Shown piece by piece: positions 1,803 to 20,000 of a stretch of DNA of 20,000 nt. The notes beneath the pieces are model-generated. The model was given only the letters and a program-made list of their open reading frames with translations, made no database searches and had not been told where the DNA came from. Within the stretch, counting starts at the first letter, position 1. Each line of letters begins with the position of its first letter. A program made the translations under genes and the position numbers. This DNA is from Microthyrium microscopicum (taxonomy: Eukaryota): NCBI GenBank assembly GCA_010405405.1, contig MU004247.1:236202-256201 (forward strand), written 5' to 3'.

Positions 1803-3162
1803 TCAGTCCACATGGACTGTAGAATGCTTCCTCTCCGCCTCCTCACCAGCTTCAGAGCTAGCATCCGTCCATGCACGATCTTCACCCAGCTCTTCCACCT
1901 GCGCTGCTATGACTTCTGTTCTTGCAGCCGCCCGCGAAGCCTCTTGCGCTCGCTTAAAGAAGTCATCTGTTCGGATGCCTCGTAGATCGCGATGGTTGAT
2001 ACCTTTTCTTATAGCGCCGTTCTTGGGGAGTTTCTTGATGAACTCGCGCATTGGTAGCATGGCTGCGTCGCGACATGCTTCTTTGATATCAGAACCTGAT
2101 AGGCCGGCGCTGACTTTGACGAGGTAGTCTACGTCGAAGTTGTCGCGATCGACTTTTGTGTCTTTGAGGACGAGCTTGAAGATTCCGCGACGTTGAGCTG
2201 CATTTGGTAGTGGGACTGGGAACTTTTTGGGCATTCGGCGCAGGATGGCTTCGTCAATGTCTTGGATGCGGTTGGTGGCGCCGAGGATACATATGCGCTG
2301 TGGGCGGCCGGTTGAGCTTGATGAGACGAGACCGTCCCAATGTGTCATGAATCTATAGAATATTAGATTGAATGTAGTATTGAGGAGACAGTTTCACATA
2401 CTCAGCTTTCACCATGGCGCTGGCCTCGTGTTCACCACTTCTCCGCGTGCCTAAAACAGCATCGATTTCGTCAATGAAGACAATCGTAGGCTCCAGTTTT
2501 CGGGCCAGCGAGAACACGGCTCTTACGAGTTTGTTGGAGTCGCCGTACCACTTTTCTGTGAGAGTTGAGATGTGAAGATTGATGAAGCAAGCTCCAGATT
2601 CATGAGCCAAAGCCTTGGCCAACATAGTCTTGCCACATCCAGGAGGACCATAGAGCAAGACACCAGATGGCGCAGAAAGTAGCGATGATGCTCCAGCATA
2701 CATGGACTCTATGGTCAAAGGATATATAACCGACTCCTTGAGCTCTTCTATTATGTCTTCTAGCCCTCCTATATCTTCAAAGGTGACCGGAATGTCTTTG
2801 GCAGCCACTAGCTCTGTGGCGATTGTCTGCTCGTAGGTTGTGAGTTGGATGTCCTCGGCTTTAGGCCTTGACTGGCCATAGGGATACTCTTCATCCTCGG
2901 TATCGGTGTCTTCTGCTTCTCGTCGGCTTCCGATTATGCTTTGTATACGTTTTCGCGCTGTGGCGGCGAGGGCTTTGTCTGATTGTTGTTTTCCTTCGGG
3001 GTCACTTAGATGTGAGAGGAGTTGACGGATAAGGAAGAAGGATACGATAGTCTGCAGGTGTTGTTAGAAAGTAGCAAAGAGAAGGGATGAAAGGTTACAT
3101 ACGGGAGCTGTCCAGAGAAATACATCTTGGAGAAACTCCCACTTTCGAGAGCCACTTGGCAT
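1803..3162 (-). CDS. MSP1: Msp1/ATAD1 mitochondrial outer-membrane AAA+ ATPase (dislocase); 419 aa; exons 3162-3103, 3051-2402, 2352-1803
   Basis: Contains VTFEDIGGL, Walker A GPPGCGKT, pore loop KWYGDSNK, Walker B FIDEID, KAEFMTHWDG (joined across intron 2) and GATNR..DIDEAILRRMP. The N-terminal TM anchor is split by intron 1 (FLQDVFLWTAP/TIVSFFLIRQLL). Introns: 3102-3052 (GTATGT..CTAAC..CAG, 51 nt) and 2401-2353 (GTATGT..CTAAT..TAG, 49 nt). Spliced length 1260 nt stays in frame. Confidence 0.96.
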
Positions 3163-3559
3163 GAGGAAAAGGCGTCGGTCGGCAGCCTCAGGTAGTTGCG
3201 TCTGCAGGTGGATGGAATGAAGGTGCGCGACCTGGACGACGTGGCAAGTATAGCGCGTGTTGGAAGGGCTGAGTTCTAAGAGGAGGGAGTTATATGGTCA
3301 TTAAAGACGATGGAAAAAGTAGCGAAAGATCAGATGTCAAGGCGAGGTCGAGGTTATGCTCGGAAGGTTTGTGTCTGAAGAGCGCGCCTGCCAGCGTGGT
3401 CGTACCGATGACCACTCCAGGCAAGCGACTCCCTAATTGGGGCGGCAATTTTACTGGGGGAGCACCACCACAGCATCCTTGCATCTTCAACAACTTAATC
3501 CATCCTTATGTAAGCAATATATCCAACTTCACTCAACAATTCACAACAACAGCAATGAA
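3163..3559. promoter_or_regulatory. Putative bidirectional promoter shared by MSP1 and TIM21
   Basis: 397 bp between divergent start codons. Contains a CCAAT box on - (ATTGG 3436-3440) inside a CArG-like CCTAATTGGG (3432-3441), and SYGGRG sites at 3415-3420 (-) and 3455-3460 (+). Function is inferred from geometry. Confidence 0.55.
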
Positions 3560-4252
3560 ATGTCGCTGCTTCGTATCCGCCTACCACGGCCCTCCGTGCT
3601 AAATCCAACGACCTACAGCACCGCCTCCATTGTCCCCATCACACGCACGATCCGCCATGCCTCCAACACCTCCAGCCACCGCAAAGTGACCGTCCTAAAC
3701 GACGATGGCCGCGTCCAATGGACCGCCCTCAGCGCCCGCGAAAAAGCAGCCCGCACAACCCAGCAAACCGTCAATCTAGCAGTCATAACAGTAGGCATGC
3801 TCTTAACCGGCGCAGTCGCATACTTGCTCTTCTCAGATGTCTTTTCACCGAATAGCAAAACAAGCAATTTCAACCGCGCAGTCAACAGGGTCAAAAAATC
3901 AAGTCGGTGTATACAGCTGCTAGGCCCTGCAGACTCCATCATGGCTTATGGGGAGAGCCCGTGGGGTTCGTTTGCGCGGGCGAGGATGGCTGGGCCGGCG
4001 CCGTCGAGTAAAGTTGGGAAAGATGAGAAGACTGGCGTGAGTACGCTGAATATGCGCTTTTTGGTCAAGGGGAGTAGGGCAGAGGGCTGGGTGACGTTGC
4101 AGATGGAGAAGGGACCCGAAGACTTGGAGTTTGAGTATGTGCTGCTGGCTCTTGATGTGCATGGGCATAATCGGGTGTATCTTGAAGGCACGAATGGTGG
4201 GTTGTCACGGAAGAAGTCACAAGGGAAAATATTGGGTCTGAAGCTTTGGTGA
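3560..4252 (+). CDS. TIM21: Tim21, TIM23 inner-membrane translocase subunit; ~230 aa, intronless
   Basis: Arg/Ser-rich, acid-free presequence MSLLRIRLPRPS..., followed by the fungal Tim21 motif VTVLNDDGRVQW..LS.REKAARTTQQ, one TM segment (LAVITVGMLLTGAVAYLLF), FSPNSKT..FNRAV..VK, I.AYGE and FEY..LALDV.GH.RVYLE. First in-frame ATG is at 3560. Confidence 0.93.
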   Translation: MSLLRIRLPRPSVLNPTTYSTASIVPITRTIRHASNTSSHRKVTVLNDDGRVQWTALSAREKAARTTQQTVNLAVITVGMLLTGAVAYLLFSDVFSPNSKTSNFNRAVNRVKKSSRCIQLLGPADSIMAYGESPWGSFARARMAGPAPSSKVGKDEKTGVSTLNMRFLVKGSRAEGWVTLQMEKGPEDLEFEYVLLALDVHGHNRVYLEGTNGGLSRKKSQGKILGLKLW

Positions 4253-4408
4253 AGGAAAATGCTTTATATTGTTCATGTAATATTAATATCAAAGGCAAAA
4301 GTATAAATCATAAACTTAACTTACTAAAATTAAGGCAGTCTTGCAGGACCAAGGTGAAGCACCAAAGGTCAGATCGCGAGATGATAAATGCGATGCAAAT
4401 GCTGCCGG

Positions 4409-4540
4409 AACTTACAACGAAAACTTACCAAAATCACGAATGCAAAAACTTACGAGATGCAGAAGTCACGAATGCAAAAACTTACAAATGTAGAAATCAC
4501 GAAACCAAAAACTTACGCAATGCAGAAAGTCCAAAACACC
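4409..4540. repeat. Degenerate ~31-32 bp tandem minisatellite (consensus AAAAACTTACGAGATGCAGAAGTCACGAATGC)
   Basis: ACTTAC cores at 4410, 4423, 4448, 4480 and 4511 (spacing 13, 25, 32, 31), with recurring TCACGAA and ATGCAGAA segments. Lies between the convergent stops of TIM21 and the orphan ORF. Confidence 0.85.
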
Positions 4541-4566
4541 AAAACAGTTGATGCAAACCAAGGAGT

Positions 4567-5775
4567 TTAACATCCTGCGTTTTGGCCTGTCCTTGCCACA
4601 AAGGCCCGGTCCATGTAGTCTGCTGCCTCATTCAAGCCTTCTGGGCAGAGCTCCGCAGGATCCATGGCCGTAATGTCTTTGCAAAGGGCCTGAGCCCAGT
4701 TGACTTGAGAGAGTTTTCGTGGCTCCATACCCCCCTGTGCCTTGCCTCCTCTCTGACGGATGGTAATGTGGAGTTTGGCGAAAGCGCGTTCCACTGCCAG
4801 TTCGACATGCTTGATGTCCCAGCCCGAAGTCGCAACTTTCCACGCGCCGTAGCTCAACTTGCGAGCGAGGCTGTTGATTTCGGCCTGGGTGGTATTACCC
4901 CTCGAAGCACGCGACCTTGCCGGTTGTGGAAGGGCCGGACGTGAAGTGGTGGGTGGAGTTGGGAGAGCCACCGGGGCGAAGGTGATGTTGGAGACCGGCA
5001 TCGATGGCGCGGCCAGGAGGGTGTTGTTGTTCAATGGCGCTGTGTCCTGCGCCATGGAGCAGTTGTTATTTGACGCTGTGTCCTGCGCCGGGAAGAAGTT
5101 GTTGTTGACCGGCATCATTTGCACGGTCGGGAAGGTGTTGTTAAACGATGCTGTGTCCTGCATCGAGAAGAAGCTGTTAAACGACGCTCTGTCCTGCGCC
5201 GATAGGGAAGCGTCCTTGGCCTGCAATTGCTCGGCCTCAACGATGCGGCTGTTCCGCACTAGCCCGGCCAGGTGTGTGGGCAAGGGCAACGTCTCCTCAT
5301 TCGGGAAGAACGGTTCAGCCTGGACGATCCGCGACCGCGCACGACGTTTCTGCTCACGTCGATTGATCTCTGGTGCTGCCTTTTTTGGCAGCCGTGAGGT
5401 CTGCTCTTCCCGAGCCAAGTGGTCTGCGATTGGCGCCAATAGGGCCGCGAGCGCAGCCTCATGGCGCGACCTAGACTCCGCCGTGGCGGTGAGGTCCCGA
5501 GGATCAATGAACTCGGGAAGGCCAGTCACTGTCTCGTCCTCCTCAGACTGGTTGAGGAGTGAGTTTGGGTCGAAGGGACTTTCCTCGACGGTGGCAGATT
5601 CCTGTCCAGATTGGACAGAAGAAGAAGGTCCTGAGATGGGCATATGATGTGACCCAGCGCTCATACCCCAGATGTCACCAGGATTTTCCGAATCGAAGGC
5701 ATCTGGAATATCCGCATAATTTGGATCCAGATACTCAAGGTAGCTGGATCCGTATTCTGCTGCTGAATGATCCAT
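4567..5775 (-). CDS. Hypothetical (orphan) protein, 402 aa: acidic disordered N-terminus, N/F-rich internal repeats, ~100 aa helical-looking C-terminal region
   Basis: Uninterrupted 1209-nt ORF. ATG at 5775 in good context (CCAAAAATGG) with a pyrimidine-rich leader upstream. Internal repeat spacings are multiples of 3 nt. No family recognised. Confidence 0.7.
   Translation of the reverse strand: MDHSAAEYGSSYLEYLDPNYADIPDAFDSENPGDIWGMSAGSHHMPISGPSSSVQSGQESATVEESPFDPNSLLNQSEEDETVTGLPEFIDPRDLTATAESRSRHEAALAALLAPIADHLAREEQTSRLPKKAAPEINRREQKRRARSRIVQAEPFFPNEETLPLPTHLAGLVRNSRIVEAEQLQAKDASLSAQDRASFNSFFSMQDTASFNNTFPTVQMMPVNNNFFPAQDTASNNNCSMAQDTAPLNNNTLLAAPSMPVSNITFAPVALPTPPTTSRPALPQPARSRASRGNTTQAEINSLARKLSYGAWKVATSGWDIKHVELAVERAFAKLHITIRQRGGKAQGGMEPRKLSQVNWAQALCKDITAMDPAELCPEGLNEAADYMDRAFVARTGQNAGC
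4978..5200. repeat. In-frame coding tandem repeat (36-39 nt units, ~111 nt higher-order period) within the orphan ORF
   Basis: GCT(G/C)TGTCCTGC at 5039, 5075, 5150 and 5186; GACCGGCATC ending at 5002 and 5116. Encodes AQDRASFNSFFS / MQDTASFNNTFPT / VQMMPVNNNFFP / AQDTASNNNCSM / AQDTAPLNNNTLL / AAPSMPVSNITF. Confidence 0.85.
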
Positions 5776-6225
5776 TTTTGGCAAGTCCTTGTTGCTGCTT
5801 TGGGTAAGTGAAGTGTGTTAGGTGGTGTCAAGTGAGAACACCAAAGAGGGCAGGTGAAAGGTGAAGTAAGTAAGTATTTGGAGTACGAAGGTACTCAAAG
5901 GGGGAAGCTGTGAAAGGGGAAAGGTAAGTGAAAGTAAGTGGCTTATTGAAGATGCACTACTTGAAAAGGGGATCAGAAGAAAGTGTGAGTTTCTGTGTCT
6001 GAAAAGCTGTGGTAAATGTAGCTAGAAAGGTAAGTATCTGGGCTGGGGAAATCTGGAGAAAGAAAGAAAGACAAAAAGAACGATCGAAAGGGATACTTTA
6101 TAGGCAGGAGTTTGCCTGCCATCAACACGTACCAGACTATCAGAGGCATCAGTCTCTACCACCGCAAGAACATAGCTGACTATGCGCTGCGTATTGCCGT
6201 GTACAGTACCGTCTGTTGAGAGCAC

Positions 6226-6516
6226 GAAAAGAGTTTAGCGCGACTTGAAACTGTTGATGGCAGAGCGTTTTTGCGGACGGAGCTGCGCTATCGTGATGAT
6301 CTGGTACCTGAAGGGGCATGAAAAGAGTTTAGCGCGACTCGAAACTGTTGATGGCGGTGGTTTTTTGCGGACGGAATTGCGCTATCGTGATCAGCTCTGG
6401 TATCTGATTGGGGAATACACCTCAGACGCTCCCATGGTTCAGCAATTTCCAAGCAAGGTTACCAGAAGAACATTTACTGATGGCAGATGCGGCCTGAAAA
6501 GAGTTTAGCGCAACTC
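6226..6516. repeat. 94-bp tandem duplication plus a third partial copy
   Basis: Copy 1 (6226-6319) and copy 2 (6320-~6414) both begin GAAAAGAGTTTAGCGCGACT(T/C)GAAACTGTTGATGGC and share TTTTTGCGGACGGA..TGCGCTATCGTGAT. A third head, GAAAAGAGTTTAGCGCAACTC, is at 6496-6516. Confidence 0.92.
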
Positions 6517-7712
6517 ATGATTGTGAACATGATCGCAACTATTGATGACTCGCAAGTGTTGATGTGACCAGTTTCAAGATTCCTTATAACCACGGGGTAT
6601 CCTCGGTGGCCATGCGATGTTTGAATGATTCTTAGTCTTCAAGGCAGCATTGTGAGATTTCACAATTGGATACACGCCCAGGAACGCCATGGGGGAAGCA
6701 GATAGCAATATGAGAACGATTTTATTGAATCTGAATAGACCATAACACCAAGAACTCGCAGTGATTTCGCCTGCTGTTGAATATGAAGCTGTAGCGACAT
6801 GCTCCTCTTGTTTCCCAAAGGGGGCTGCCTAAGCTAGATGCCATTATCCGATGGTACGCCGTGATGATCTCTGAAACTCAAGCGTTCCGTACCCAGTGAG
6901 GTCAATCCTTGTGGATCGAATGCCCAGCAAAAAGTTGAGAGTTTACTTCTTGATAATTCGAGCATGACCATGGGCTTCAGAGAATCTGCCCAAGATATCA
7001 TTGAGCACAAAGACAATAGAACACCCACTACGCTGCTATCAACTAGCATGCTCAGAGACTACTTCATCTTGCCAGGGTAATAGCAGGTAATCGAAGGTAC
7101 ACCCATCTCCTTCGGTTCGTGGGGCTAGTATGGACAATGCAATGGCCAGGAAACCATTGTGAACAAGAGTGGTCGTTCCGTGGTAGAAACATTGAAGCTT
7201 GAATTTAGCGTACCCGACAATTCAAAGAGTACCAGTCGTCCGTTCGCTCTTCTTGTCGCAGACGTCGTGAGTCGATCAACTCCATCCCTTGAAGAGAGCA
7301 GTAGCTGAATAACCCAGACTCAATTACGATCACAATAGCGATTCCTGAGTTGGATCAGATTGCAGTGCTGACTTTGACGTGCGAGAAAGTTGCTGTTTGG
7401 CGATTTATTTTCCAGTTCTTTGGACCCAATGAAACTCCCTCCGGACAGTTGTGAAGAGCTTTGCTCGGTTACGACTTTTTGACGAGGTCGACTAAGCAGG
7501 AAGGGTCCCCTGAAATTCTTGGTGAAGACTGCAAATGTGCTTCGGTCGCGACAGATCTCCGCGGAGGAGCTAGTCCGGATGTCAACGAAACCAATAGCAG
7601 ATTCTACTACACGTCAGAGTCAAGTCCAAGGCGTAATACGCAGAAAGACAAAAATCGGTAATTCTCGAGATGCTTAATACAATACAGGCGCAACCATACT
7701 TTGTCAAAGCGC

Positions 7713-9342
7713 TCAGCTTTGCAGTCTACCCTTGAGCTTCTCAATACTGCGACGAACAGCATCGTGATTGCCATTCTCTGCGCTGGAAAGAGCGGCAACT
7801 GTCTCATTGATAGCATCATCCAGCCCCTGCACGTCTCTTTCTACATCCTCTGGTAAGAGTTGAACAGACGAGTAGGTCGTAGATGCATATAGTTGCTTCA
7901 AGGCTGACTGCAGCGCCTTTTTCTGCTCATCTATAGCCTTGTTGACCACATCTGCAGTAGACGTAGCTGCAGACGCGTATTGCTCATGCAGTCGCGCTTT
8001 ACTGGCTACTGTAGCAGTTTCCAGAGCGGGGGCACCCACCCTTCCTGGAATCGCAAAGCGACGAAACACCTGCTCCGCTAAATTGATATTGCTGGACGCA
8101 GACTTTGAGTCGGCGCGGCTTGCTAGGCCAGGACGGGCCGATTGCATTTTACTGAGGGGACTCGCTGATTTTTCCGAACCTGAAGTTGCGTTTGGTTCAA
8201 AAAGCTCCGCAAAGGTTGAACTGATTTCCGACAAGACGCTGTTATGATTGCGAAGATCCACGGAACAGGCACTGATGACTTCTAATTGATTGACCATATG
8301 TTCCAAGGTGGCCAGAACATACTCAAGCCACTCATGCTGTGAGCTTTGTGAGTGTTTTTGATTTGTCCGGATGGCTTTGACGAGCGGCTGACGATAATCA
8401 GATCCCACCACAAGCTCCATGACTGACCCGATTTCAGAGCGAAGGCTTTCCACTTCTGCTTCGAGGTCCTCCAGGTTGGTGTCCTCGTCAGAAATATTTG
8501 CGGCACCTGGCTCCTCCATATAATCGCATATGGCCTCATTGATGAGCGTATCGATCCGAGCTTTGGTATCCTGTTCCCTGAGCGAAGCTAGAGCGCGAGA
8601 CCATCCATCAACGGTTGGCACTGTGACAGCCTCTTTTGACAGTGGCATAGTTCTGGGTGCAAGTTTGGAGAGAGCAGCAAGTATCTGATCATCTGCTCCA
8701 AGACGTTCGGATATCTGAGATGTCAAGGAGGACACAGCCTTGGCGGACTGCTTGGTTGCAATACTAAACTCCTCTTCTATTGAGTTGACTAAATCCTCAA
8801 CCTGCAGAAAGGTGTTAGCTTGTCCAGTAGAAGCGAAGTGCTCAGTTTACCGTAAAGTCCAAACTGCCAGCGAGTGTGCGTTTACTACCAGGACTATCAG
8901 CCTCAGCGGCACTTCGACGTTCCAAAGTTTGCCGCTGGAGAGCATGAAGAGCCTCCCTCTGAGCTTCCAAAGTCTCAGCATGTTTCTCAATCAGATCTGT
9001 TGATGTCTGGAGTGAACTGATAGCCGCTTTGAGTTGCGCATCGTTCAGTATAAGCTGGTCTGATGATGGAGGGCCATTCTGATGCGATAATTCTTGATAT
9101 CTAAAATCTTCTGTCAACAGCAGTCTCAGGAGCTACGCAGAATGACATTGTTACATTTGCATCTCATCCGCAGAGAGTAGGGTCTCATCGTGAAGATACT
9201 CCTTGACCCACACAATCATTTCATCCCTTGTTTTTGGAGACGCAAAGGCCCACGATATATCGTCTGCTCCCAACGGAATCTCCCTCTCTTTCAAAGCCGC
9301 GAGCAGTCGCTCCCTGGCCTGGTAGTCCTGGATATTCATCAT
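7713..9342 (-). CDS. HAUS3: Probable augmin complex subunit 3 (HAUS3/Dgt3/AUG3-like) coiled-coil protein; 508 aa; exons 9342-9155, 9100-8851, 8801-7713
   Basis: Introns 9154-9101 (GTAACA..TTGAC..TAG, 54 nt) and 8850-8802 (GTAAAC..CTAAC..CAG, 49 nt) join three ORF fragments in frame (1527 nt). The N-terminus LGADDISWAF...EMIVWVKEYLHDETLLSADEMQIYQEL parallels the recalled human HAUS3 N-terminus (LNGEDFDWLF...FLKWFCGNVNEQNVLSERELEAFSIL). The remainder is heptad-rich. The gene model is more certain than the name. Confidence 0.68.
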
Positions 9343-12900: not shown

Positions 12901-13670
12901 AGTTTCAACGCGTTTGCTTGACAGTTTTTGTCGCGCTCAACCCCCTTTCTAGGATGAATTTCCGCGAAAGGGTCTGAGTACGGAATGCTGGTAATGTTAT
13001 TCAGGAACCGTAATCTCTGGATCGCCATGGTTGGGAGTCAGGAAAGGTTGTAGCTAGACAGGTACGAGTTAGTAGTGGTATGGGAGCTTTGTCCTTAGCT
13101 GAATCATTGCTTGCCTGTGACATTGGTTTGCCGAAGACATTTCCTGATAGCTTCGAGTCAAGTAGTAAGTTTCTAAAAGTTCGAGGCCGTGTCAACTGCC
13201 GCACTCCACAATATGCCCAGATTTTGAAGGGAGCTAGCCATTGGTGCCCGAGAGAGAGAGTTTTCCACGTTTGCTAGCGATTGGGGGTTAACAAGAGACG
13301 AGAAGATTAAGAAGGACATTTTTCTGCACTCTAACTTTGTAAATATGATGGAATTGTGGTAGATGAAAGAGAAAACCGTAACTAAGGACTTCTATGGGAA
13401 AAATGAATATTGCGAGTCTGCGACACGGTATTTGATAGATATGGGAGATACACAATCAAGATTGAGTGGCATTTGATGCGCCTCATTTGTTCCGCGGCTC
13501 CAGTGTTTTGCGGATGCGCAAATATCAGAGATTTTACTTTGGAATCTTACCAGTCAACAACGAGCCTGTGAGCCTAGATGTTGGGAATTGCTAAAGAGGA
13601 AAATCAAGAGATGGCATCATAAGACTGATCCAGGCATGGCAAGGACTTGACCAGCAATGAGAGGGGAGAA

Positions 13671-14179: not shown

Positions 14180-14490
14180 TTAAGGGGCCGCCTACTCCCA
14201 TACCTCCCTAATCCATCTTCCGTAAATTCCCCAACCTGTCCCTTCTCGCATCTCTCCCTTAAACATTTCATCCATCTATCTTGCAACTCTTGTGCTGCCT
14301 GTCCTTGCTCTCACCACTAACAAACATATCCATACCCACCTACTACTACTACAGTCTTCAAAGTATTTACCATTATCATCCAGAAAGCAAGCCTTGATCG
14401 CGCCTCAATCTTGCTCCTACACTCTGCCTCGACTCTATCAGCACCGCTCTATCCAGCAATTCCGCTATTTTCACAGTCCTGCTCCTTGCC

Positions 14491-15731
14491 ATGGAGCAGC
14501 AAAAGCCTATCAGCCTAGTCACGGCTGCTGCGCGCGTCCACACCTTTGATCGAGAACTGCCTCGAGGAGAACTCCCAAGACCATACTCGTGTCCGATATG
14601 CAACAAAGCGTAAGACTCCGCTCCTTGACTGGTCTATCAGTTCTAACAAGACACAGATTTCACCGGCTTGAACATCAAACTCGTCACATTCGCACCCACA
14701 CTGGCGAGAAGCCGCACGCCTGCACATTTCCAGGCTGCACAAAACGCTTTAGCAGATCTGATGAGCTTACACGACATCTCCGCATTCACAACAACCCCAA
14801 CTCTCGGAGAGGTCGTGCACCAGGCATAATATCTGCCGCCGCACGACAAAGTCTTCACCATGACGGTACTCGGTCGGCTGGTATACACGATGCACACATG
14901 ATGCCACCACCTAGAAATATCCGATCTGCTCCAAGCTCCAACATGGCTTCTCCCAACGTCTCTCCACCAAACCATTACATTCCTTTTGCTGAACGAGTCA
15001 ATGCCCTCAACTCCTACGGAATGCACAGTGCAACCAGCAGTGGAGCCCAAAGTCCCGTCGGGCCACCAAGATACAGCGACAACATGAATATCCTATCCAC
15101 AGCTGCTTCTCAAGTCGAAAGAGAGAATGGACTACCTTCGCTACACCGACTTCCACCCATTTCCAACTCGTATGCTGCTGCACGGATTCCAAGCACCAGC
15201 CTTGCTCAATATTCTCTTTCCGCACATCCCATGTCAAGATCCCACTCACACGAAGCCGATGATCCTTATCGCCATCGTCAGACCAAGAAGAGTAGACCAA
15301 ACAGCCCATTCTCTACCGCTCCTCCCTCTCCTACATTTTCACATGATTCTCTTTCCCCCACTCCTGATCATACTCCCATCGTCACACCTGCGCATTCCCC
15401 TCGCCTAAGACCACTATACATGGCCGACAACCATCTTCCTCATCTTCGAAATCTCAGTCTCCATCCAGCTCCCATGCTTCCACCAATGGAACCAATGGCC
15501 GACACAACCGCAAGCCACAGCAACACCAATAGTCGTCCTCAATCAACTTTCAATGGCAATGGCGGTGGTATGCGCATCAGTGATATGCTTTCAAGACCTG
15601 ATGCCAACGACCGGAAACTACCGATTCCGCGATTAGCTGTCACCGAACCATGGAGTGGCCCTAATTCTATAATGGGCGGCCGAGGAAGCAATGGTAGCAG
15701 CATCTCCGGAGAAATGAGTGATCGCGTCTAA
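14491..15731 (+). CDS. creA: CreA/Cre1/Mig1 C2H2 zinc-finger carbon catabolite repressor; 397 aa; exons 14491-14609, 14657-15731
   Basis: Removing intron 14610-14656 (GTAAGA..CTAAC..CAG, 47 nt) restores [66 protein letters not shown]. CreA hallmarks present: [71 protein letters not shown]. No in-frame ATG between the upstream stop (14395-14397) and 14491. Confidence 0.97.
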
Positions 15732-17452: not shown

Positions 17453-18914
17453 TTATCGTGGGCTGGAACGTTTTTTGCGTGTGGGGTGGTTGGCAGTTTA
17501 CTTTGGGGTGTGGGATTTAAGGTTTGAGGAAGGTGAAATTGAGGGGAAATATGTTCTTCCCATCGCTTTAACGACTCGTTACTCCACAGATAGCTTAAGA
17601 GGCTCAGATGTCAGGAGGGAAAATGATGGGGTACGTACCCAAGTCATGTAATGCTAGGAATGGTAGGAGAGGAGGAAGTAGCTTGACTCGGGTTCAGCTT
17701 TCTAGAACTCTGAGGCCTCACCACTTCGGTCAGCGAAATGGTCGCCGAATCTTGGTTAGGCACGGTAGGCTAGGAAAGGAACTGTTCCTTTGTGGATTCG
17801 CTGCGGATATCTCCATGAGCTTGAGCTTCTTGACTCGGACAGCTATTCTTGATTTATGGATGACGAATTGCGCAACGTGGTTGTGAGTTATGGAAATGGG
17901 ACTAGACATGTTGGCAAATTTGCAGGCTTGATTCCGTCTTCGGAAACCAAATTCCTGAAAAGGAAATCTACCGTAGCCTTGTTTGAACCAGACTGATTGA
18001 GTATCGACAAATGTTAACCCTGCTCCTCAGTGTACGCAAATGCGCGCGCAGTGTTGATCTCATGAAAGGTAAGCATGATTGGATGATTTGGACGTTATCA
18101 AAATCAAATGGCACGATGCCATCGATTTCCAGATATGGGTGTTTTTTTGCATGTGTTTTCACCTTCTCAAAGACATGTGCTTGGTCAAAACATGTGCCTG
18201 GCTCACCTACAAGCAAATGATAAAAGAGCGTTGCGCATATTCAGACAAAATACCCTTATAGTGCAGAAACACACCCGAGTCTTCCCGACCACCACGTACA
18301 ATATCGATACATTTGATGCTCATACCATCATAGTGTTTTTTGAGGACTCTGCTTTTCGAGAAGCCAATGTCGCCATCGCAATTTCCAGGGAACATTTACC
18401 GTTTGTTCATCATGTCTAATTTTACGTTATCATTTAGAAATTTATATGCCTTGATCATGTAAAAAGAAACTAGGCGCTCGAATTATCGCAGGACAAGTCA
18501 TTCAATGCTGAAAACATCCTTGACTCTTATCTCATTCATGCATCAAAATCTCACCAGTCTCCGCACATGCTGAAAACATGGCCTCGCTGAACGATTCCCC
18601 GCATATCTCGCGATTTCTCGCGGTGTTGTTGCTGACTGGTTTTACTTGGAAGATTATGGTTTGTTTGGTGGGGAAAGGCTAGGACGTAACAGGATATCAT
18701 TGGCTTCTCCTGCAAGGCTATCAAACTATGCACGATAAGTGCCAGCCATCTGGGACCACAAGTCTCCTTTGATGCTTCCAATATCCAGTGATGATGCAGA
18801 GCCGAACGACATCCCGCAGCTTCCGCACCCAACAGCCGCAACCTCCACATTCACCGACTTGTTTGTGTGAGATCGTAAAGGGACGACGTGGTTCCGCTAA
18901 CCCTCAGAAAATCG

Positions 18915-20000
18915 CGCTAGAAAAATTAGTAATCTTTACTATACGAGGGCCTATATATAGCTTACCCTTAGTATATAGTGGCGTAATACTCCTATATAAT
19001 CTATATCTCTATATATTATATATATAAAAGTAGCATATATAGCCTTTATATAAAAGTATATAAACTAATATATTACGTAATATAAGTATTATTATAATAG
19101 ATAATTAGTATATACTTATTATAGACTAGTCTTAGTATATAGAATTTAATTATAATAATATAGCTATATTAAACCTTATAACTAATCTAATTAATTTTAT
19201 ATTATTACTCTAATATATATTTAAGTTACTATATAACTATATTCTTATTATAGCTTAAGCTTTATAGCTAATTATTTATATATACTTTACCTACATTATC
19301 TATATTCTTAAAAACTAAACTTATAAAAGTTAAGAATAAAAATAAAGAAGAATAAGTATTTAAATTTAACTAAAGCTAACTAAAAGCTATTTATATATCT
19401 CTACTTAGTATATATTATATTAATATAATATATAAGAATACTTTACTTAGTATAGGTTAACTATAAGTAGTAATAATATTAAATCTATATAAGTCTTTAA
19501 ATACTAAATATATATAATATTCTCTCTTTATTTATATACTACTAATAGAAGTATTCTTTATATAGTATCTCTACTATAGAATCTATAGCTAGTATACTTT
19601 AGATCTATGCTTATAATAAAGAAGAAGGACTTAGAGGCTTTAAGAATAGTAAATAATATCTTAAAGTAGTTTATATTATTTATAAGGCTAAAATAATAGA
19701 AGATATTAAGTACGTACTAACTATACTTAGGTTTAGTTTAGCTATTAAAGTATTAATAGTACTAAGCCTATAATACTTAAATTTCTACTCTATACTAGTA
19801 AAAATAATAATATAACGTATATTTATTATTACTACTAGAAATACTTAGGTATTTAAGTTTATTAGTACTAATATCCTTATATTCTTAATATAAATTTAAT
19901 ATACTCTTATATTAATCTTAGTAAAATAAATAAGTTATATAACCTTTATAAATTATAGAGATATATATTAAAGCTAAAAGTATAATTAAAAGAAAGAATA
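18915..20000. mobile_element. RIP-degenerated AT-rich repeat / transposon relic, family unidentifiable, continues beyond the window
   Basis: Abrupt switch to very AT-rich sequence with a large TpA excess and near absence of CpA/TpG dinucleotides, with stops in all frames. This is the classic signature of repeat-induced point mutation. Confidence 0.85.

Follow-up and report, generated by a model that had tools for sequence, protein, structure and literature searches.

Why does an intronless gene of a filamentous ascomycete carry the same six-base word, repeated and inverted, on each of its flanks? The question arises in a window of 20 kb (the whole stretch of DNA analysed here, C18 236202-256201, in a genome of 37.1 Mb and 58 contigs), where a sequence-only reading had described five copies of ACTTAC on one side of an orphan open reading frame (ORF) and six copies of its reverse complement GTAAGT on the other. 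It had offered three explanations: pairing between the leader and the 3' UTR, perhaps masking U1-binding sites, protein-binding arrays of a mobile cassette, and compositional coincidence.

Arrangement of the hexamers

A motif scan of the window found ACTTAC on the + strand at 4319, 4410, 4423, 4448, 4480 and 4511 and GTAAGT on the + strand at 5804, 5866, 5870, 5924, 5934 and 6030, with just one further copy of the hexamer in the 20 kb, a GTAAGT at 13165. All eleven copies reported previously were verified; the left array of five was correct as far as it went, and the copy at 4319 had been overlooked. On the sense strand of the orphan, six ACTTAC precede the start codon and six GTAAGT follow the stop codon. 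The former constitute the leader array (5804..6035, - strand), located in a C/T-rich leader, and the latter the trailer array (4319..4516, - strand), in which each hexamer is followed by T. Both arrays lie in the presumed UTRs, between a TATA-like box and an AT-rich end zone. ACTTAC is the top hexamer of the leader, while GTAAGT ranks second in the trailer, behind TAAGTT. The core common to all twelve copies is the donor hexamer at positions +1 to +6, with variable flanks, and the donor-like hexamers face outward from the ORF.

Rarity of the arrangement

Across 800 kb of the same genome, sampled as 80 loci, the hexamer occurs once per 4.0 kb per strand, in agreement with the chance rate of about 1 per 4 kb assumed by the sequence-only reading. 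This background contains two clusters of three hexamers within 240 bp and no cluster of four or more. Six copies were reached by 0 of 2000 dinucleotide-preserving and 0 of 2000 trinucleotide-preserving shuffles of each 300-nt flank; because of these shuffles and the absence of comparable background clusters, compositional coincidence in its plain form can be rejected, while its other form, two separate slippage repeats, stands as a possible explanation. None of 266 sampled ORFs has an inverted hexamer at least three times on both flanks, and an inverted word is shared 3 and 3 times by 27 of 70,756 random flank pairs.

The whole genome was also scanned for three close ACTTAC (gaps of up to 60, four patterns). 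Of the 23 distinct places found, 18 are AT-rich (five measured, with GC of 0.20-0.26, and 13 judged from the printed match) and three are (ACTT)n microsatellites, which leaves the two arrays at this gene. Nor is ACTTAC a common word of leaders in this species, an objection that had been anticipated: it is present in 6 of 100 regions upstream of long ORFs, in a single copy each (ORFs taken mechanically from the 71 of 80 loci with GC above 0.42). The two-sided inverted layout is thus real and very rare. It is a genome-unique sequence arrangement around a real orphan gene, for which any functional reading is weakly supported and has a strong neutral rival.

The orphan gene and its neighbours

The orphan ORF (4567..5775, - strand) is intronless, comprises 402 codons (402 aa) and is coding-like. 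Its codon score of 0.109 exceeds the 75th percentile of 112 long ORFs and stays below the 90th, and the remaining five frames over the ORF have negative scores. The start codon has the context AAAATGG, no upstream ATG is present in 5776-6100 (325 nt), and a TATAAA element read from the sequence at 6102-6097 (6097..6102, - strand) is the probable core promoter.

DNA and protein searches, the former of a kind that skips simple repeats, found the locus in a single copy in the genome. Only the protein itself was recovered among 5.8 billion sequences (8000 candidates scored) and among 1.84 billion representative sequences, and no homolog was found in metagenome contigs, viral contigs or elsewhere in its own genome; likewise, no ortholog was found in any collection searched. 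The ESM Atlas features gave no usable match for residues 290-402 or 1-190, the full protein has no match in Pfam, PHROGs or NCBIfam, and the C-terminal domain has none in Pfam or NCBIfam at E<=10. In composition, the protein is acidic at its N-terminus, carries a basic patch near residues 130-150 and is of low complexity in the middle. A bZIP reading of the patch was rejected, with no Pfam match. The C-terminal domain was modelled with low confidence as four helices (pLDDT 59); Foldseek returned 0 matches at E<=0.001 against BFVD, and the best structural match of this model (pLDDT 59), at a VIA Z of 6.0 (rmsd 4.0, 80 aligned), was not a clear one. The product would resemble a transcription factor in layout only, and it poses a separate puzzle of an ordinary kind.

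The orphan is convergent with a TIM21 gene (3560..4252, + strand; Pfam PF08294, E 6e-31), which has 93 homologs at E<=1e-30 and a nearest named relative 52% identical. Twelve TIM21 loci from distant fungi have no other gene in common with the window. TIM21 is arranged head to head with an AAA ATPase gene (1803-3273), presumably Msp1-like, across a promoter of about 300 bp; this sharing of a promoter by two mitochondrial genes was not seen at the 12 distant loci. Upstream of the orphan lies a multi-exon HAUS augmin-like gene (HAUS3-like; 7713..9323, - strand, 5' end approximate), named after its source annotation and a UniRef label at 100% match, with a weak Pfam match under the cut-off (PF14932, E 0.0035). 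Its intron at 8800-8848 is spliced and has the uncommon donor GTAAAC. Farther away, an ORF end at 23-1357 gives weak Abhydrolase_10 and PKD matches, and a C2H2 zinc-finger gene at 14490-15731, which we take to be similar to CreA/Mig1, probably contains an intron near 14610-14657 and is preceded by about 5 kb with few ORFs. At 18900-20000, GC falls abruptly to 15-19%, as is typical of RIP-mutated repeat DNA.

Protein-binding arrays or a mobile element as possible explanations

One way to account for the layout is at the level of DNA: a protein, possibly the orphan product, would bind the inward-pointing ACTTAC at both gene ends, serving autoregulation, a gene loop or an insulator, or else the words would be what is left of the subterminal sites of a former mobile cassette. 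Protein-binding arrays usually look like this, with one short word repeated in inverted orientation at varying distances, and the acidic N-terminus and basic patch of the product are transcription-factor-like. However, no DNA-binding family or fold was matched, and neither set of sites is in the upstream promoter, which a separate 94-bp repeat occupies: one set follows the TATA-like box and the other is in the trailer. We consider this explanation unlikely on balance.

The mobile cassette favoured by one of the earlier explanations is unsupported. A search for extra copies, which had been suggested, found none in the genome; outside the hexamer the two arms are not homologous, and the longest direct repeat between the outer ends that could pass for a target-site duplication (TSD) is, on assumed ends, CTTTATA, of 7 bp. 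The best inverted match, 15/18, was reached by 190 of 500 controls, with no long pair of arms, and to judge from these comparisons the two arms are not diverged inverted repeats. DNA transposons such as hAT, CACTA and Foldback elements carry inverted subterminal binding arrays of a short word at both ends; unlike them, the single-copy locus described here has neither terminal inverted repeats (TIRs), nor a TSD, nor a transposase.

Origin of the arrays by local duplication

Both arrays bear marks of duplication. Three trailer hexamers are held by a 32-bp minisatellite of 3.1 copies (4431..4528; TRF score 147 and alignment), and those at 4423 and 4410 align with two shortened units of it; the 32-bp unit was found nowhere else in the genome, its three matches at up to 3 mismatches all falling at this locus. 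The minisatellite had already been cited as a reason to regard the left set as non-independent, which TRF bears out, but the same caution had not been extended to the right array, which is also duplicated: it contains a 4-bp overlap of hexamers (5866/5870), a 10-bp tandem at 5919-5940 and a degenerate duplicated stretch of about 62 bp. The same hexamer has thus been multiplied twice, in opposite orientation, by local duplications with unrelated histories, and since both arrays were made by duplication, the twelve copies amount to few independent events.

Tandem repeats extend beyond the arrays. Upstream of the promoter, a 94-bp repeat is present in two copies and a partial third (6222..6516), the coding region includes a degenerate repeat of 36 bp (12 codons) in 4.8 copies (5026..5200), both identified by repeat search, and the locus also has a 17-bp repeat. 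Four tandem arrays fall within 4431-6564, and only one place in 710 kb has as many in 2.2 kb. Moreover, ACTTAC self-overlaps at period 4 and (ACTT)n microsatellites occur in the genome; at L049:1500-1630 (G000:C10), where GC is normal, a compound (GTAA)n(GTAG)n microsatellite illustrates that the hexamer is slippage-prone. Inside the duplicated units, the hexamer shows no significant retention (p about 0.2 on the left and 0.09 on the right, from hand-counted differences).

It is quite possible, if somewhat short of probable, that the layout is a neutral coincidence without function, in which short units were amplified to the left and right of the ORF at a young locus prone to slippage, and those of both sides contained ACTTAC by chance. 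The density of tandem arrays, the small number of independent events and the self-overlapping word all speak for this, as do the absence of homology or pairing beyond the hexamer, the unspliced RNA contig described below and, as we infer, the many chances offered by a scan of some 250,000 windows. What it has to accept is that the word most amplified on one flank is complementary to one of the two top words on the other, in the face of the 0 of 266 ORFs and 27 of 70,756 flank pairs mentioned above, and that this word is also the best donor of the genome among the hexamers tested.

Several other short sequences at the locus deserve a record. Thirty-three bp of the 94-bp repeat (window 6228-6260) recur once, at 97% identity, at L002:1501-1533 (G000:C3:2284468-2284500), about 500 bp upstream of a small ORF (L002:2028-2564) with a signal-peptide-like start and several cysteines; this is possibly a shared promoter element. 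A 13-mer of the same repeat is not enriched, with 44 matches vs 63 for a control. TGCAT is repeated on the orphan sense strand at 4380-4545, with four TTGCAT among the top trailer hexamers, largely as a product of the minisatellite; UGCAU is, we assume, the Whi3 motif. A G+C-rich short hairpin-like palindrome was seen by eye at 6590-6609, past the promoter repeats.

Donor likeness of the hexamer

The sequence-only reading pointed out an exact U1 decamer at 6028-6037. This segment, about 60 nt downstream of the TATA-like box on the - strand, reverse-complements to ATACTTACCT, the 5' decamer of U1 snRNA. The match is correct but not special alone, as the decamer has 186 copies in the genome, vs 80 for a reversed control; places with multiple decamers on C4 proved to be AT-rich repeat DNA. 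As for genes of structured RNA, identity with U1 snRNA or another Rfam RNA was dismissed with no Rfam match, the Rfam models giving only two sub-threshold matches to unrelated families in 3000-8000, and telomerase RNA was dropped on the same ground, with one TAACCC at 7310.

Among 8 hexamers tested in this genome, GTAAGT is the most donor-like: 98 of 313 copies have a branch site and YAG in the next 80 nt, vs 7% and 10% for two control words. The same is true of 0 of the 12 array copies, which for this reason we regard as unpaired donors. In five of six trailer copies the exon-side G is missing, and their pairing with the U1 decamer reaches only -5.4 to -5.7 kcal/mol (-5.4 to -9.1 for the trailer as a whole), while the leader copies read on the + strand pair at -6.7 to -11.7 kcal/mol. 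Being the better U1 targets on the + strand, the leader copies would fit a role on antisense RNA as well as one in masking.

RNA evidence

The RNA data consist of one run, guessed to be RNA, in which the neighbouring genes show three spliced introns. One contig starts at 3565, extends past 9000 and is free of joints up to 8799; it covers the orphan at a depth of 282 and both arrays, which are unspliced in the main assembled form. Its strand is not readable and it carries no information on ends or rare isoforms, so that major splice use alone is excluded; spanning several genes, it does not demonstrate a single transcript and may stem from TIM21 or read-through RNA. The contigs leave 3274-3564 uncovered, a gap that proves nothing. 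The contig is also jointless across the 1.6-kb interval 6100-7713, where the longest ORF has 83 codons, and the RNA there may be read-through, a long UTR or lncRNA. An introner-like element or stwintron was rejected, with donors facing outward and the region unspliced.

Could the arrays nevertheless be real donors that are rarely used? They might define an NMD-triggering 3'-UTR intron, undergo first-step cleavage and decay, splice antisense RNA to 6206, or circularise the ORF by back-splicing. Pattern scans found branch-like sites downstream of both arrays: a weak candidate 3' end for the trailer donors at 4338..4373 (- strand), with TCTGAC and, as the first AG, an AAG about 29 nt on, which would give introns of 76-177 nt, and a candidate antisense 3' end at 6175..6206 (+ strand), GCTGAC followed by CAG, 177 nt from the donor-like 6030. 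A back-splice candidate in the leader has CTAAC about 5821 and CAG about 5795. Precedents exist as well, since in Podospora about 3% of the genes contain an intron in the 3' UTR, and in Neurospora regulation of this kind is reported to be functional (PMC9801653, in part). Against this, the contig is unspliced over 3565-8799 while three neighbouring introns are spliced, no joint at 4338-4373 or 6175..6206 appears in the RNA contigs, 0 of 12 copies fit the short-intron pattern, and the only trailer acceptor is a distant AAG. Rare donor use of any of these kinds seems to us very unlikely.

Possible leader-trailer pairing

Since the two arrays are complementary on the same strand, the RNA ends could pair. 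The cofold gain was -24.7 kcal/mol with 4300-4566, reached by 1 of 100 dinucleotide shuffles, and -28.0 kcal/mol with 4400-4566, reached by 3 of 100; the minimum has four nested ACUUAC:GUAAGU helices, one with 5 of 6 pairs. When the hexamers were scrambled, the mean gain fell to -19.8 and 1 of 30 controls reached the real value, whereas when the spacers were shuffled and the hexamers kept, the mean was -26.0 and 16 of 30 matched or beat the real gain. The gain therefore comes from the hexamers alone, and complementarity beyond the repeated word is absent (16 of 30 motif-kept controls in cofolding and 190 of 500 in best local alignment equal the real sequence). When the full RNA of 1741 nt is folded, the probability of pairing with the trailer is 0.03-0.52 for the leader hexamers, while two of the six trailer hexamers exceed 0.8 for pairing with the leader. 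The spacing puts four of six copies in register at a tolerance of 3 nt, as do 77 of 1500 gap permutations; the agreement is less striking at 5 nt (176 of 1500), and the test was picked after the spacing was seen.

These models make leader-trailer pairing possible and marginal. The co-folding proposed by the sequence-only reading thus favours its end-to-end pairing over dinucleotide shuffles, though not over spacer-shuffled controls that keep the motif, and the masking of U1 sites that it envisaged finds no leader ACUUAC paired with the trailer above 0.52. A stronger version would be an RNA proofreading switch, in which the mRNA carries its own U1 mimic: six leader ACUUAC, the outermost within the full U1 5' decamer, would pair in register with the six GUAAGU, and only full-length transcripts would escape U1-dependent retention or decay. 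We hold such a switch to be improbable.

A possible role for U1 and its neutral alternative

The reading that we prefer, tentatively and at rather less than an even chance, is that the 3' UTR carries unpaired U1-type donors which hold 3'-end processing or export in check, and that the complementary leader masks them or acts on antisense RNA. On this view, the hexamer copies would owe their preservation to recognition by U1 snRNP. The mRNA has no intron, and U1 bound to the six GUAAGU pseudo-donors in its 3' UTR would hold back polyadenylation or export, or else favour decay in the nucleus. As for the leader array, it could serve as a cis competitor that masks the trailer sites in the full-length mRNA, ACUUAC being U1's own pairing sequence; alternatively, it could be the same element acting on an antisense RNA that would run from TIM21 across the gene.

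Function is favoured because the same word is inverted on both sides, is the best donor, is limited to six bases and is genome-unique in this layout; the equal counts of 6 and 6, with 4 of 6 in register, are also counted for a U1-type role. Accident is favoured because the locus duplicates, the word self-overlaps, retention is not significant and the scan was large. The depth of 282 over the orphan does not suggest silencing and, like the pairing of five of six trailer copies at -5.4 to -5.7 kcal/mol, stands against a U1-type role. The precedents for effects on polyadenylation or export are from animal cells and viruses, and the same action of U1 is assumed for fungi. We regard the U1-type and the neutral readings as nearly tied, by judgement rather than computation.

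Either outcome would be instructive. If functional, the locus would provide a natural example, in a fungus, of a U1 role other than splicing, exerted via a dedicated pseudo-donor array, and possibly an mRNA whose leader competes with U1 in cis; if neutral, it would demonstrate that slippage at one locus is able to mimic regulatory architecture well enough to pass every shuffle test.

Comparison with known systems

Literature searches, with partial coverage of subscription papers, found no report of paired ACTTAC/GTAAGT arrays in fungi, and searches of similarly partial coverage found none on U1, pseudo splice sites, antisense and termination in filamentous fungi. Individual features of the locus do have counterparts, cited here from parts of the respective papers. 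The internally symmetrical stwintrons of Hypoxylaceae likewise tie a fungal inverted symmetry to splicing, but they are multi-copy excised introns with terminal inverted repeats of 45-55 nt (PMC8469720), whereas the present locus is single copy, has outward donors and a 1.2-kb ORF inside, and lacks a long inverted repeat. The 3' CITEs of plant viruses similarly bring RNA ends together by short complementarity, the 5' and 3' UTRs kissing through 4-8 complementary bases (PMC4995689); there, however, the contact is loop-loop between hairpins of an uncapped viral RNA, while here it would involve six repeated hexamers, for which presenting hairpins were not demonstrated.

Closer to the reading preferred here, some intronless mRNAs of budding yeast undergo spliceosome-mediated decay, among them BDF2 (PMC3792478, in part), likewise a fungal intronless gene with a donor and downstream branch-like sequences. 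BDF2 was shown to be spliced and degraded, whereas the RNA contig here has no junction, and a donor array with a complementary leader is a feature of this locus that is not described for BDF2 in the available part of that paper. In flies, an intronic pseudo-donor is reported to act through U1 proteins (PMC13100119). In human cells, a 5' splice-site motif retained in the terminal exon impairs 3' processing and export (PMC4380460), and this too is a donor motif in unspliced mRNA; it is depleted from terminal exons and intronless mRNAs there and strongly enriched at one locus here. Finally, the late elements of papillomaviruses (HPV16/18/31) hold U1-binding 5' splice sites (PMC5618011, in part) and, like the trailer described here, present several unpaired 5' splice-site motifs at the start of the 3' UTR that could bind U1 snRNP. 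The present case differs in being a fungal nuclear gene with six exact GUAAGU derived from a minisatellite and a complementary array in the leader; by analogy with these viral elements, the locus may work like a U1-binding 3' element.
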